A stretch of 29,450 nucleotides of DNA, from the UHGV virus genome UHGV-0338605, one strand, 5' to 3'. A model generated the notes under the pieces. The model was not told where the DNA came from, ran no database searches, and saw only the letters and a list, made by a program, of their open reading frames with translations. The stretch is from a virus. Shown piece after piece: positions 3,614-24,261 of the stretch; the first letter of the stretch is position 1, and each line of letters begins with the position of its first letter. The translations under genes and the position numbers were made by a program.

Positions 3614-3690
3614 TGGTGCGGCATGCAGGATTCGAACCTGCGACCAACCGCTTAGAAGGCGGTTGCTCTATCCAACTGAGCTAATGCCAC
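3614..3690 (-). tRNA. tRNA-Arg (anticodon UCU), argU-like
   Basis: Minus-strand 77-nt sequence GTGGCATTAGCTCAGTTGGATAGAGCAACCGCCTTCTAAGCGGTTGGTCGCAGGTTCGAATCCTGCATGCCGCACCA folds as a cloverleaf: 7-bp acceptor stem with one G-U pair, GTTCGAATC T-loop, anticodon loop CTTCTAA, encoded CCA. Confidence 0.88.
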
Positions 3691-4143: not shown

Positions 4144-4160
4144 ATTACCTAAAAGGTAAT
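4144..4160. promoter_or_regulatory. 17-bp palindrome ATTACC-TAAAA-GGTAAT, candidate operator, copy 2 of 6
   Basis: Read directly; about 90 bp upstream of the ATG at 4250 in an AT-rich promoter-like stretch. Confidence 0.6.
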
Positions 4161-21098: not shown

Positions 21099-21734
21099 CT
21101 ATTTTATTGGCAGCTTATGCTTTGAAATTATGGCCAATCTGTTTTGGAAGTTTTCCGCATCACCCCATAACCAGGTTTCACCTTTCTCAAGCTCTTCCTC
21201 GTTATTCATCTCTATCAGCTCGCATGTCATCATGTCGTAACCATAGAGGTGGAGGCCAAGTTCCAGTGCGTCATACATGCGAGCCTGCCAGAACGACATG
21301 CCTTCATGAGTCTGGTTGCGATCAGACACGATGATATCGTACCGTTCCAAGAGGTAGTTCATGAAGATGATGCCGGCGAAATCATGAAGCACAGCACGAT
21401 GCTTAGGCTTCTGGGTTCTCCATACCAATATCTGCGTGACAGGACGGCAGTTAAGATAGCTGTCAGGCTGGATAATGACACGATTGTAATACACTACCTC
21501 TTCGGTGAGGTCATTTATCAATGACAGTTCAAAGTGCGCCTGTGGAATCTCGCCTTTCTTACGATCGTCTACACGGACAACGCGGTATCCAGGAGCCAGA
21601 GAAACGCCTTTGACATCAGATGTGACATCGTTGCCGTTCACTAACTCTGAATACAGGGCGCGGTTGTCTGGAGTTTCGTTCAGATGAGCGAAAACCTCAG
21701 TTACCTTTGCTGGATTCAGCAGTTGTTGTGGCAT
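21099..21734 (-). CDS. hypothetical protein (211 aa), accessory gene of unknown function
   Basis: ATG at 21734 preceded by GAGGTG; own upstream palindrome site and downstream terminator; no family recognised. Confidence 0.65.
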   Translation of the reverse strand: MPQQLLNPAKVTEVFAHLNETPDNRALYSELVNGNDVTSDVKGVSLAPGYRVVRVDDRKKGEIPQAHFELSLINDLTEEVVYYNRVIIQPDSYLNCRPVTQILVWRTQKPKHRAVLHDFAGIIFMNYLLERYDIIVSDRNQTHEGMSFWQARMYDALELGLHLYGYDMMTCELIEMNNEEELEKGETWLWGDAENFQNRLAIISKHKLPIK

Positions 21735-21773: not shown

Positions 21774-21790
21774 TTTACCATTAGGGTAAA
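21774..21790. promoter_or_regulatory. 17-bp palindrome TTTACC-ATTAG-GGTAAA, candidate operator, copy 3 of 6
   Basis: Read directly; 40 bp upstream of the minus-strand ATG at 21734. Confidence 0.6.
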
Positions 21791-21927
21791 TGAACTATCC
21801 GAATGTTAAACGCCTTCGTACTCGTCAAATTTTCTCATGTGGGCTCCTCCTGTATCGGTGCCTAATCGCTATGGATCACCCGTAAGGTAATAGTACGCTA
21901 TTCACCCACAGTCTGCAATCTGTACAG

Positions 21928-21962: not shown

Positions 21963-22658
21963 TCAGAAGAATCCTGCTTTGTCGTTGATGTACTCCGCGT
22001 GAGTCTGGATATCACGCAGGCATTTGCTCACACCAACGATGTAGCAGAACATGGTGGTCAGTTCCGCCGCCGCGCCCGATACGTCATGCCCGTCTTCCTG
22101 TAACTGGTTCAGCAGATTCATCAGCAGTGAGTTCTCCGTCAGGCCGAGAACACCAGACGGCGAATGAATCAGGCTACGGTAGCCGGGCTTCAGTGGGGCG
22201 CTGTAGGTTTTGTTCTCTATCTTCATTGCCTGCATCACTGCTGATGCTGTGGCGTTTGCAACCTGGTCGGCAACCATCTTTATGCGTTCTTCCTGCGGGA
22301 GCGAGTTTTTAATGTAACTTCCGGTGCGGCGGATCTGAGGAAGAACCTCACCTGTAACCCATTTACGAAAGCGGTAGGGGATAGTGCCTGGTGTCACTGC
22401 GTCGCGGCAGCGGAGGATCAGTGTGTAGAGGCCTGACTCGGAGATGATGATCGATTCTTGCTCACCGCCAGGGGTGTCGGTTGAAGCGACGCCCTTCTCA
22501 TCATCATCAAGTTTTCGAACAGCATCTCGATGGTTTGCTATGCCTATAGCCCGACAAACATCTGAAGCGATAAACCATGGCTCACCATTAATGACGATTA
22601 CTCGTATATCGGCTTGGGATTCGAAAGAAAAAATGGACGTGCTTTTTGTAGCTGTCAT
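21963..22658 (-). CDS. Bro-N domain protein (antirepressor-like) with distinct C-terminal domain (231 aa)
   Basis: N-terminal FESQADIRVIVINGEPWFIASDVCRAIGIANHRDAVRKL matches the Bro-N/antirepressor N-terminal pattern; ATG at 22658 with AAGG upstream; C-terminal about 70 aa is paralogous to the small ORF at 23806-24066. Confidence 0.75.
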   Translation of the reverse strand: MTATKSTSIFSFESQADIRVIVINGEPWFIASDVCRAIGIANHRDAVRKLDDDEKGVASTDTPGGEQESIIISESGLYTLILRCRDAVTPGTIPYRFRKWVTGEVLPQIRRTGSYIKNSLPQEERIKMVADQVANATASAVMQAMKIENKTYSAPLKPGYRSLIHSPSGVLGLTENSLLMNLLNQLQEDGHDVSGAAAELTTMFCYIVGVSKCLRDIQTHAEYINDKAGFF

Positions 22659-22926
22659 AGTGGTTACCTTTTAGTCTGGTCAATCACCACTACCGACGCC
22701 AATCGGTTGGTGGTGAACTGTGCAGGGTTGGCGTAACCGGCTAAAAGGACCCGGCGCACCTTTCGGTGCCCCCACACAGCCCACCATAATACGAATGTGG
22801 CCGTGCTATACGCATAAAAAAACCGCTTGCGCGGTGAATGCGCCTTTTAGTAATCCGGGACGCCAATCCCGGCACTGGATTTTGCCAGTGCCCGATTACT
22901 ATGGCACAAGAGGAGTGCGATGTAAA

Positions 22927-22943
22927 TTTACCGAAAAGGTAAT
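22927..22943. promoter_or_regulatory. 17-bp palindrome TTTACC-GAAAA-GGTAAT, candidate operator, copy 4 of 6
   Basis: Read directly, in the divergent intergenic region 22659-23055. Confidence 0.6.
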
Positions 22944-23019
22944 GATAAACGCGGAGAAATATTAAAATCAACCGTATTTGGTTGATTGCGTTTAACGCTT
23001 GATCACCTGAAAGCAAGAT

Positions 23020-23036
23020 ATTACCTTTAAGGTAAT
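23020..23036. promoter_or_regulatory. 17-bp palindrome ATTACC-TTTAA-GGTAAT, candidate operator, copy 5 of 6
   Basis: Read directly; 20 bp upstream of the ATG at 23056. Confidence 0.6.
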
Positions 23037-23055
23037 GTTATTGTGAGGAAAAGCA

Positions 23056-23784
23056 ATGGAAGTTTTCTGGATAGTTGTTGGTGTTGTTACGGTGATTATT
23101 TACGTTATCAACCAGAACAGGACTAAGGTCTCTGATCGCACAGTCGTTAATCATCGCAAAACGATAAAGACCGAAGATGGAGAAATAACGATTAATCGTA
23201 CACAGGTGATAGACCACACCTCCACTCAGTTTCAAAAAACTGGAGGTAATGCGCCGGATATTTCAGTACATCCTGCTTATGATATATCGGTAATCCAGAC
23301 ATATTATAAACAACAGGAGTCAGCAAAAGAGAGGGCGCTGATTCAGCCAAAGCCATTTACAGCAGAGCTTCCACCTGGAGTGTCAACGCGTCCGGCATAT
23401 CATGACAGATTCCCAGGTGATGACATATCGTCTCAGTTACCTAAAAAAGCTCCTCAGGTAGTATCTGAGCCAGCAAGAATACCTTCTGTATCGCCATCAC
23501 AAGAAGAATCAGCTAACAGAGTTTCAAGTGGTAGTAAGCAGTGTTTGCGATGCAGAATAAACCTTCCATATGAAAAATTCAGGAAATCGTCAAAAAATCC
23601 AGATGGATTGACTAAGTGGTGTGCAAGGTGTCTCGATGGCCCAAAGAATACACGCCATATGAAGTGGTGCCCAATTTGTAATGTCCGCAGAAAACGCACC
23701 AGCTTTTACTCTAATAATCAAAATGCGGACGGCTTAATGGCATGGTGCAAAACGTGCTGGGACGAGCACAAAGCGAAACGATAG
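23056..23784 (+). CDS. membrane-anchored protein with tandem Cys4 zinc-ribbon-like repeats (242 aa)
   Basis: GAGGAA RBS; N-terminal hydrophobic helix FWIVVGVVTVIIYVI; C-terminus carries two repeats of C-x2-C-x(17-20)-DGL-x3-WC-x2-C; AT-rich; followed by a strong terminator. Confidence 0.65.
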   Translation: MEVFWIVVGVVTVIIYVINQNRTKVSDRTVVNHRKTIKTEDGEITINRTQVIDHTSTQFQKTGGNAPDISVHPAYDISVIQTYYKQQESAKERALIQPKPFTAELPPGVSTRPAYHDRFPGDDISSQLPKKAPQVVSEPARIPSVSPSQEESANRVSSGSKQCLRCRINLPYEKFRKSSKNPDGLTKWCARCLDGPKNTRHMKWCPICNVRRKRTSFYSNNQNADGLMAWCKTCWDEHKAKR

Positions 23785-23808
23785 GCCGCTCTTGCGGCCT
23801 TTTTTTTA
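23784..23808 (+). terminator. rho-independent terminator
   Basis: Stem GGCCGC/GCGGCC (23784-23799) with TCTT loop followed by T8 (23800-23807). Confidence 0.75.
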
Positions 23809-24066
23809 TGTGGTTTGTTTTCGTAATTGTTCGGCACAATAGTCGAGATGTGTTTGCAGATCCTTCATGGATAGCTGTGAGCTGGTGACATAGTTCACCA
23901 GTGCAGTAAGTTCGGCCAGCGGCCCGTCGACGTTGAACCCGTCTTTATCAAGTTCCCGCAATAAAGTCATAAGGTGCGAGTTCTCCACCAGGGATATAAC
24001 GCCTCCCGGCGTGTGTACTCTTTCATAAAATCCATCTTCCAGTGGGTGGTGATACCGCTGTTGCAT
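23806..24066 (-). CDS. small protein (86 aa) paralogous to the C-terminal domain of the Bro-N protein
   Basis: ATG at 24066 preceded by GGAG (the track ORF begins at a TTG at 24084). About 40-45% identity by eye to residues about 160-225 of the 231-aa Bro-N protein (shared ENS-LM-LL, DG-V-G, AELT, QTH-Y). Confidence 0.6.
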   Translation of the reverse strand: MQQRYHHPLEDGFYERVHTPGGVISLVENSHLMTLLRELDKDGFNVDGPLAELTALVNYVTSSQLSMKDLQTHLDYCAEQLRKQTT

Positions 24067-24141
24067 TAACCATTCTCCATACAAACACTGTATATATATA
24101 CATATATCAGATGAACCACTGTTTCACCAGTATGATTTTTA

Positions 24142-24158
24142 ATTACCTGTGAGGTAAT
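24142..24158. promoter_or_regulatory. 17-bp palindrome ATTACC-TGTGA-GGTAAT, candidate operator, copy 6 of 6
   Basis: Read directly; between the divergent starts of the 86-aa gene (24066, minus) and the tail spike gene (24262, plus). Confidence 0.6.
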
Positions 24159-24261
24159 AACTTTGTTGATTACATCTCGTGCGATTCATATATGGTTCGT
24201 TGGGTAATAGAATAACCAGTAGTGCGGTGCGCCGGGTGCTGCGACTTTCTGGAGTTTAAAC

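Follow-up and report, generated by a model that had tools for sequence, protein, structure and literature searches.

The window analysed here is the UHGV virus genome UHGV-0338605, a stretch of 29,450 nucleotides (nt) which, judged by its nucleotide matches, is an epsilon15-like (Uetakevirus) prophage. Two minus-strand genes in it encode proteins with a homologous domain. One is a Bro-N protein and the other is a small open reading frame (ORF) that corresponds to the antirepressor gene ant of the Salmonella phage SPC32H. The region around them shares 97% identity with a prophage in E. coli O166:H15 JNE070796 and 93% with Escherichia phage TL-2011b, and it matches vB_EcoP_ZX5 (hereafter ZX5), phiV10 and other Uetakevirus (epsilon15-like) podophages in parts with 89-92% identity. 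The genes and domains are the following.

21963-22658, minus strand: gene of the Bro-N/Ant-C fusion protein of 231 amino acids (aa), the putative second antirepressor, 100% identical to ZX5 ORF4 (QTH80016.1)
22338-22610, minus strand: Bro-N domain, residues 17-107 (Pfam: PF02498; E 2.3e-21, 76.7 bits against a cut-off of 25.6)
21981-22211, minus strand: Ant-like C-terminal domain (Ant-C type B), residues 150-226, supported by 5D50_E, phrog_450 and BLASTP
23806-24066, minus strand: ant, coding for Ant type A, a stand-alone antirepressor of 86 aa that is orthologous to SPC32H Ant, epsilon15 gp19 and phiV10 gp24

A first-pass annotation, made from the sequence alone, had placed both ORFs at these positions on the minus strand and had aligned the C-terminal roughly 70 residues of the Bro-N protein with the 86-aa ORF. 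Both statements hold. BLASTP, for which the small ORF was entered in its 92-aa TTG-start form, aligned residues 149-223 of the Bro-N protein without gaps to residues 2-76 of the small ORF (in 86-aa numbering), with 31 of 75 positions identical (41%, E 5e-21). The Smith-Waterman score of 170 lies far above that of the shuffled controls, which the first-pass annotation had proposed as a check (26.7 +/- 4.4 with a maximum of 60 in 2000 shuffles, z ~32). Because of the BLASTP and the shuffling results, the paralogy of the small ORF and the Bro-N C-terminus is real. Both sequences also match phrog_450, a family of 88 positions annotated with "unknown function", the small ORF with an E value of 2.1e-45 and the Bro-N C-terminus with 4.2e-36. 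Overall, type-A and type-B Ant domains share 38-41% identity. The positions conserved in the type-A/type-B alignment are Y5, H18, P20, G22, L26, S30, M33, L36, D42, G43, V46, E52, Y59, T72 and H73, and conserved Ant-family residues of the Bro-N protein include D189/G190, E199 and T219/H220.

By its sequence and its predicted structure, the small ORF is the already characterised Ant antirepressor of epsilon15/SPC32H-like phages. This assignment is based on a full-length match to a solved structure, on the fold, on the identity to an annotated ant gene, on the gene position and on the upstream layout. With phmmer, residues 1-86 match residues 1-86 of PDB 5D50_E, "Anti-repressor protein", with an E value of 2.1e-46; the entry is titled "Rep-Ant complex from Salmonella-temperate phage". 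The structure model of the small ORF has a moderate predicted local distance difference test (pLDDT) score of 75.7, and a Foldseek search of the PDB with it returned solely the chains E and H of 5D50, with a probability of 1.0. The annotated ant product of SPC32H has the same length of 86 aa and is 85% identical. The window ant lies beside the divergently transcribed tailspike gene, as the SPC32H ant lies beside tsp, and epsilon15 gp19 and phiV10 gp24 are likewise always located between the tail genes and the divergent tailspike gene. With about 130 close homologues across the Enterobacteriaceae and an 85%-identical homologue that has been crystallised, the small ORF is a genuine gene. Its only Pfam match, to DUF724, is sub-threshold and was dismissed as a chance match.

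Ant is reported to be tetrameric, to bind two Rep dimers and to break up the Rep tetramer (PMC9638917), and the C-terminal tetramerisation domain of Rep mediates the contact with Ant (PMC9986798). At the DNA level, no complete E. coli genome matches the ant allele of the window at more than about 80% identity, and its nearest counterpart is in Enterobacter phage Tyrion; these relationships indicate recombination at the ant locus. Kim and Ryu reportedly found in 2013 that LexA represses ant, and that the SOS response induces the prophage via Ant rather than by cleavage of Rep. The control elements found upstream of ant in the window are listed below.

24075-24078, minus strand: Shine-Dalgarno sequence GGAG of ant, read from the sequence and invariant in 9 relatives
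24086-24105, unstranded: variant LexA-type SOS box ATGT-N8-ACAG upstream of ant, at a conserved place
24142-24158, unstranded: exact Rep operator ATTACCTGTGAGGTAAT, flanked by the divergent genes for Ant and the tailspike; it precedes the ant ATG by 76 nt and is kept in 9 of 9 relatives
24185-24213, plus strand: promoter-like site TTCATA-17-TAGAAT for the tailspike gene, within the most conserved block of the intergenic region

Upstream of the SPC32H ant, the operator ATTACCTTACAGGTAAT is followed by the canonical LexA box TACTGTATGTTTATACAGTG, then by GGAG and then by the ATG. The order in the window is the same, with Rep operator, LexA-type box and ribosome-binding site. The LexA-type box itself reads ATGTATATATATACAG, in which an A replaces the first C, a normally invariant letter of the left CTG. 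The canonical form TACTGT-N8-ACAGT occupies this place in seven other relatives, and the A variant is also found in Klebsiella phage ST512-KPC3phi13.3. LexA may still bind the variant box, and the exchange of C for A could mean weaker SOS repression and more spontaneous induction.

The site homologous to 24142-24158 is annotated as 'protein_bind: repressor' in epsilon15. The GenBank record of epsilon15 assigns ATTACC-N5-GGTAAT as the repressor operator, with three copies on each side of the repressor gene; the small terminase gene, the portal operon, gp19/tailspike and ruvC are each preceded by one copy. We found 10 such sites with at most 2 mismatches in the window, where 0.82 are expected, and these include the terminase, portal and gp19/tailspike copies of the epsilon15 type at 812, 4144 and 24142. 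The terminase site is a tandem pair (812-846, before the small terminase gene) and the portal site is at 4144-4160, before the portal operon. Rep presumably acts at these sites, and the operators before the terminase and portal units suggest that the prophage repressor might act directly at late transcription units, beyond the immunity region. The first-pass annotation had reported an ATTACC-N5-GGTAAT site upstream of each of the two genes. The site before the small ORF is exact, whereas the copy before the Bro-N gene carries one mismatch and lies 269 nt away.

Unlike the product of the stand-alone, divergent ant, the Bro-N protein is a fusion, and its gene lies about 1.1 kb away. Its residues 150-226 match residues 3-79 of the Ant chain 5D50_E (phmmer, E 1e-13), and the protein as a whole matches phrog_130, 'anti-repressor Ant', with an E value of 3.7e-63. 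No Pfam family covers the Ant-C domain, and Bro-N is the sole Pfam match in the 231-aa protein; neither P22_AR_N nor ANT (Pfam: PF03374) is present in it according to Pfam. Over-expression of the identical ZX5 ORF4 reduced prophage-carrying cells from 10^9 to 10^6, about 1000-fold, and lowered the repressor messenger RNA (mRNA) by 75% (PMC9782041). Over-expression of ZX5 ORF4 thus pushed the phage away from lysogeny, which fits a second antirepressor; an inhibitor of Ant should have had the reverse effect. The regulatory nature proposed for both genes in the first-pass annotation is correct, as are the paralogy and the shared operator motif. In ZX5, the orthologue of SPC32H Ant (QZE12053.1; ZX5 locus segment 2089-2346) is annotated as hypothetical protein. 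The published ZX5 experiments dealt only with the Bro-N fusion, the accessory antirepressor, and missed the canonical Ant orthologue. In phiV10, gp23 (phiV10 segment 2549-3228, 'anti-immunity protein') is the same protein with a frameshift after residue 181, by which the C-terminal domain is split off. This natural truncation mutant is of use for probing the role of the domain.

The 300-nt leader of the Bro-N gene contains two structured RNAs on the coding strand, both detected with Rfam, together with the elements listed here.

22667-22674, minus strand: CUAAAAGG, which overlaps the Bro-N Shine-Dalgarno sequence and is the 8-nt complement of the C4 loop CCUUUUAG (22741-22748)
22696-22702, minus strand: UUGGCGU, the second C4 target, a 7-nt complement of ACGCCAA (22728-22734), 22 nt upstream of the Shine-Dalgarno match
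22706-22791, minus strand: C4 antisense RNA (Rfam: RF01695; 77.7 bits against a gathering score of 45)
22816-22891, minus strand: isrK-type small RNA with its own terminator hairpin and U-run (Rfam: RF01394; 77.9 bits against a gathering score of 50; terminator scan)
22898-22926, minus strand: promoter-like site TTTACA-17-CATAGT with TG, from which the start would fall near the isrK 5' end
22927-22943, unstranded: operator-like site with 1 mismatch, 269 nt upstream of the Bro-N ATG, abutting the -35 element of the isrK-type promoter

Both C4 target motifs are repeated inside isrK, and isrK and C4 precede the second antirepressor gene in all five relatives examined. The pairing of C4 loops and targets follows the a/b-site logic that P1/P7 immI uses. 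As pairing is possible between the C4 loops and the Bro-N ribosome-binding site, translation of the Bro-N gene should be blocked by C4 and freed by the isrK-type RNA. In the isrK-orf45-anrP system of Gifsy-1, the read-through transcript is translationally silent, and the short IsrK RNA turns on antirepressor translation and prophage induction (PMC4825925). ZX5, phiV10, phiv142-3 and Tyrion have a counterpart of the operator-like site 22927-22943 some 51 nt ahead of isrK, and in TL-2011b its coordinates match those in the window. No LexA-type box was found upstream of the Bro-N gene, unlike upstream of ant. Two short minus-strand ORFs, 22664-22777 (37 aa, GTG start) and 22680-22787 (35 aa, ATG start), overlap the C4 RNA and stop 5 and 21 nt before the Bro-N ATG, respectively; the former is annotated as 'ash family protein' in ZX5. 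Either of them could be a coupling ORF like icd or orf45, or an annotation artefact over the C4 RNA.

To see where else the domain occurs, we ran an exhaustive profile search over 1.84 billion representatives, in which only 67 clusters contained the Ant domain (E <= 1e-3). Where it is fused, the Ant domain is always C-terminal, and its N-terminal partners are Bro-N, AntA, Phage_pRha or ORF6N. The fusions surfaced in this exhaustive search, while a word-indexed homologue search with the C-terminal domain had returned short proteins only. Among sequenced phages, tblastn found the Ant domain in 34 records, nearly all of them podophages of about 38-45 kb and many of them Uetakevirus. The co-occurrence of the domain pair in other phages, which the first-pass annotation had suggested to check, is common, as 21 of the 34 records carry two or three copies. 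Ant is alone in the other 13, namely SPC32H, epsilon15, other Salmonella phages, PAS61, BUCT554 and BUCT711. The 37 records with a SPC32H-type Rep are essentially the same set as the 34 with the Ant domain; the related phages in which the domain occurs all have such a Rep, and that of ZX5 matches 5D50_A with an E value of 4e-42.

The type-B domain is found on different N-termini among the relatives. The second gene of phiv142-3 (Orf8) has an AntA N-terminus, the same leader RNAs and a 91%-identical type-B C-terminus. TL-2011b has three Ant-domain genes, and its third antirepressor gp42 (segment 269-1453) combines P22_AR_N with a C-terminus essentially identical to the type B of the window; in front of gp42 lie an Arc-like gene and a sar antisense RNA, the latter scoring 44.8 bits with Rfam. 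The protein P0138 is an 84-aa stand-alone chimera, the N-terminal half of which is type A and the C-terminal half type B, which shows recombination between the two lineages. Out of 5426 complete E. coli genomes, 528 carry ant and 469 carry type-B domain DNA with at least 90% identity, the products of the latter appearing under three different names.

The two subtypes differ in how they relate to Rep. Type B and Rep diverge together, with identities to the relatives of 78% and 78% in Tyrion and of 53% and 45% in Klebsiella. Comparing E. coli with Salmonella phages, Ant type A keeps 88% identity, whereas the Reps of these phages share only 42% overall (N-terminal domain 54%, residues 92-198 38%). 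With three lineages compared, these numbers are a hint that the two Ant subtypes may follow different specificity rules. The conservation of type A could reflect a broad specificity or a recent exchange of ant alleles beside the tailspike recombination hot spot.

We propose that the prophage has two parallel antirepressors which, in our judgement, probably act against one repressor, the Rep of the SPC32H type, via homologous Rep-binding domains. The direct observations behind this proposal are the homology to the crystallised Ant, the identity to ZX5 ORF4, the RNA elements and the base complementarity within them, the operators and the fact that the domain and Rep occur in the same phages. The Ant tetramer would bind two Rep dimers via the C-terminal tetramerisation domain of Rep, break the DNA-binding Rep tetramer and so induce the prophage. 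Lying behind a LexA-type box, Ant would be the SOS-responsive trigger. The Bro-N fusion gene would be transcribed from its own promoter next to the operator-like site, and its translation would be held off by C4 and released by the isrK-type RNA, as in P1 immI and Gifsy-1. The fusion would thereby offer a second route to induction or anti-immunity, with a small-RNA switch in place of the LexA box. Each antirepressor would then sit behind a sensor of its own: the LexA box for Ant, isrK/C4 with the operator-like site for the Bro-N fusion, and, in phages with a third antirepressor such as TL-2011b, Arc/sar for the P22-type fusion. Ant is the primary autonomous antirepressor and the Bro-N fusion is an accessory gene with an interchangeable N-terminus. 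Found on interchangeable N-termini, the type-B domain behaves as a target-binding module. As Ant is reported to act as a tetramer, Ant and the Bro-N fusion may also form mixed oligomers.

Several points weigh against this proposal. The ZX5 protein was over-expressed from a GST-fusion (glutathione S-transferase) vector, pGEX-6p-1, and the responsible domain was not singled out. The AlphaFold2 model of the full-length Bro-N protein, built with 23 close homologues, has a mean pLDDT of 49.6 and gives no structural support; of the structure predictions that the first-pass annotation had suggested, the one for the small ORF thus matched 5D50 and the one for the Bro-N protein stayed at low confidence. 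The LexA-type box of the window is mismatched in the normally invariant CTG. The specificity rules are left unaccounted for, with Ant type A 88% conserved while the Reps have 42% identity, and 38% over the C-terminal half that was crystallised with Ant. As rep itself is not part of the window, the cognate Rep is deduced from the operators and the relatives. Finally, the binding of Rep by the type-B domain is a prediction, as is any contribution of the Bro-N domain.

The best surviving alternative, which we nevertheless regard as improbable, is that the type-B domain lacks the kind of action that Ant has on the resident Rep. It might be the oligomerisation domain of a DNA-binding Bro-N regulator, as Bro-N is generally regarded as a DNA-binding domain, or it might be aimed at a heteroimmune Rep in cross-talk or superinfection anti-immunity. 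The contrast between a type A conserved over divergent Reps and a type B that diverges with Rep hints at different specificities, and the 'anti-immunity' annotation of phiV10 gp23 would also fit, as would the trans-acting antirepressors known from Gifsy phages (PMC3121763). However, the domain is essentially confined to phages with the SPC32H-type Rep family, its divergence tracks that of the resident Rep, which points to the resident Rep as the target, and the ZX5 experiment was made with the cognate phage (PMC9782041).

Slightly less probable still is an obligate two-component pair, in which the small protein co-assembles with, competes with or decoys the Bro-N C-terminus, for example in mixed tetramers. 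This is close to what the first-pass annotation had proposed, with the stand-alone copy as partner, competitor or decoy of the full-length protein. The genes are adjacent, both occur in 21 of the 34 phage records and in the majority of such E. coli prophages (469 against 528 genomes), the chimera P0138 joins both types naturally, and homologous domains could mix in the reported Ant tetramer (PMC9638917). On the other side, Ant works alone in SPC32H and stands alone in 13 of the 34 records, the two domains are only 38-41% identical, and the genes have separate promoters with unrelated control elements. The type-B domain moreover occurs on three N-terminal scaffolds, with TL-2011b carrying three Ant-domain genes, and the over-expression phenotype of ZX5 ORF4 is antirepressor-like and not anti-Ant (PMC9782041). 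The evidence thus does not favour the partner, competitor or decoy role. A toxin-antitoxin or decoy pair was rejected as well, since there is no toxin-like domain, the genes do not form an operon in the window and Ant is alone in many phages. That the similarity is due to chance, or that the small ORF is not a gene, is practically inconceivable and is refuted by the BLASTP match, the shuffle test, the PDB 5D50 match with its crystal structure of an 85%-identical protein and the hundreds of conserved homologues.

Two parallel antirepressors against Rep therefore remain our preferred reading. A bolder extension, which we offer as speculation with little chance of being right in full, is that the SPC32H-Ant fold is a portable repressor-specificity module. 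Epsilon15-like phages would have grafted it onto P1/Gifsy-type cassettes (isrK-C4-Bro-N or AntA) and P22-type cassettes (arc-sar-P22_AR_N). Type A would be broad, SOS-triggered and tolerant of Rep divergence, and type B would co-evolve with the resident Rep, be immunity-specific and perhaps form mixed tetramers with type A that integrate SOS and small-RNA signals.

All single components are of known kinds (SPC32H Ant, ZX5 ORF4, isrK/C4 and Rep operators), so the advance is incremental and at the level of annotation. The SPC32H Ant fold as a common C-terminal module of Bro-N, AntA and P22_AR_N antirepressors is apparently undescribed in the literature that we searched. It gives a concrete, structure-backed function, predicted Rep binding, to the unnamed C-terminal domain of these widespread "antirepressors". 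About 9% of complete E. coli genomes carry the type-B domain, mostly in prophages that also carry ant, and in such prophages a single repressor type would be the target of two or three antirepressors with different sensors. They offer a tractable system to ask why temperate phages retain redundant induction triggers and how antirepressor specificity evolves.

Between and around the two genes, the following further features were found.

23020-23036, unstranded: exact Rep operator, its centre 93 bp from that of 22927-22943; the ATG of the plus-strand ORF 23056-23784 follows after 20 nt
23056-23784, plus strand: 242-aa ORF between ant and the isrK-C4-Bro-N module
23783-23800, both strands: GC-rich hairpin, a terminator common to ant (minus strand) and ORF 23056-23784 (plus strand), from the terminator scan

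The 242-aa product (phrog_6762) carries a hydrophobic helix near its N-terminus and zinc-ribbon repeats of the CxxC type near its C-terminus, with weak Stc1 and endonuclease VII-like matches. Its ORF is intact in E. coli JNE070796 and is a misc_feature 'similar to hypothetical protein' in TL-2011b, and it is not annotated in ZX5 or phiV10. Downstream of the Bro-N gene lies a 211-aa ORF (21099-21734, minus strand, phrog_1349), upstream of which there are operator-like sites at 21774-21790 (2 mismatches) and 21875-21891 (1 mismatch). The slot of this ORF holds different genes in other phages, in TL-2011b a YafO-family toxin. A transfer RNA gene, tRNA-Arg with anticodon UCU (3614-3690, minus strand), lies between the terminase and portal operons. 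NCBIfam and PADLOC gave zero matches for every protein of the region, and a reading as defence system is without support.

Among the known systems, Ant-Rep of SPC32H (Kim and Ryu 2013, J Virol; Kim et al. 2016, PNAS; PDB: 5D50, 5D4Z) is the closest to the small ORF. The two share 85% identity, the length of 86 aa, the place beside the tailspike gene and the operator with a LexA-type box, and the relatives of the window phage have a homologue of the 5D50_A Rep (E 4e-42). In contrast to SPC32H, the LexA box of the window has ATG for CTG in one half-site, and both SPC32H and epsilon15 lack the second gene of the window, which joins Bro-N to a 41%-identical Ant domain. For that second gene the counterpart is ZX5 ORF4, a 100% identical protein from the same genus with the same leader RNAs. 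The ZX5 paper called ORF4 an anti-repressor from its Bro-N domain and did not note the SPC32H-Ant-like C-terminus (PMC9782041). The leader resembles P1/P7 immI (c4 RNA-icd-ant) and Gifsy-1 isrK-orf45-anrP in having an isrK-type RNA with terminator, then a C4-type RNA and then an antirepressor gene, with C4 loops complementary to two ribosome-binding-site motifs that both recur in isrK (PMC4825925). Unlike in P1 and Gifsy, the C-terminus of the effector in the window is of the epsilon15/SPC32H Ant type. With P22 immI (mnt-arc-sar-ant) the window shares antirepressor genes directly beside the tailspike gene, and the sister phage TL-2011b shares the Arc-like gene, the sar RNA and a P22_AR_N antirepressor. 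The window itself lacks arc, mnt, sar and the P22 ANT C-terminal domain, and the P22-type scaffold of TL-2011b, unlike P22 Ant, ends in the Ant type-B domain. In the Bro-N, KilA-N, Rha and AntA regulators, conserved N-terminal modules are said to be shuffled with variable C-terminal ones, with stand-alone modules existing as well, as reportedly described by Iyer, Koonin and Aravind in 2002. The C-terminal module in the window differs from this general pattern in that its link to an antirepressor-repressor complex of solved structure allows a concrete function to be predicted.

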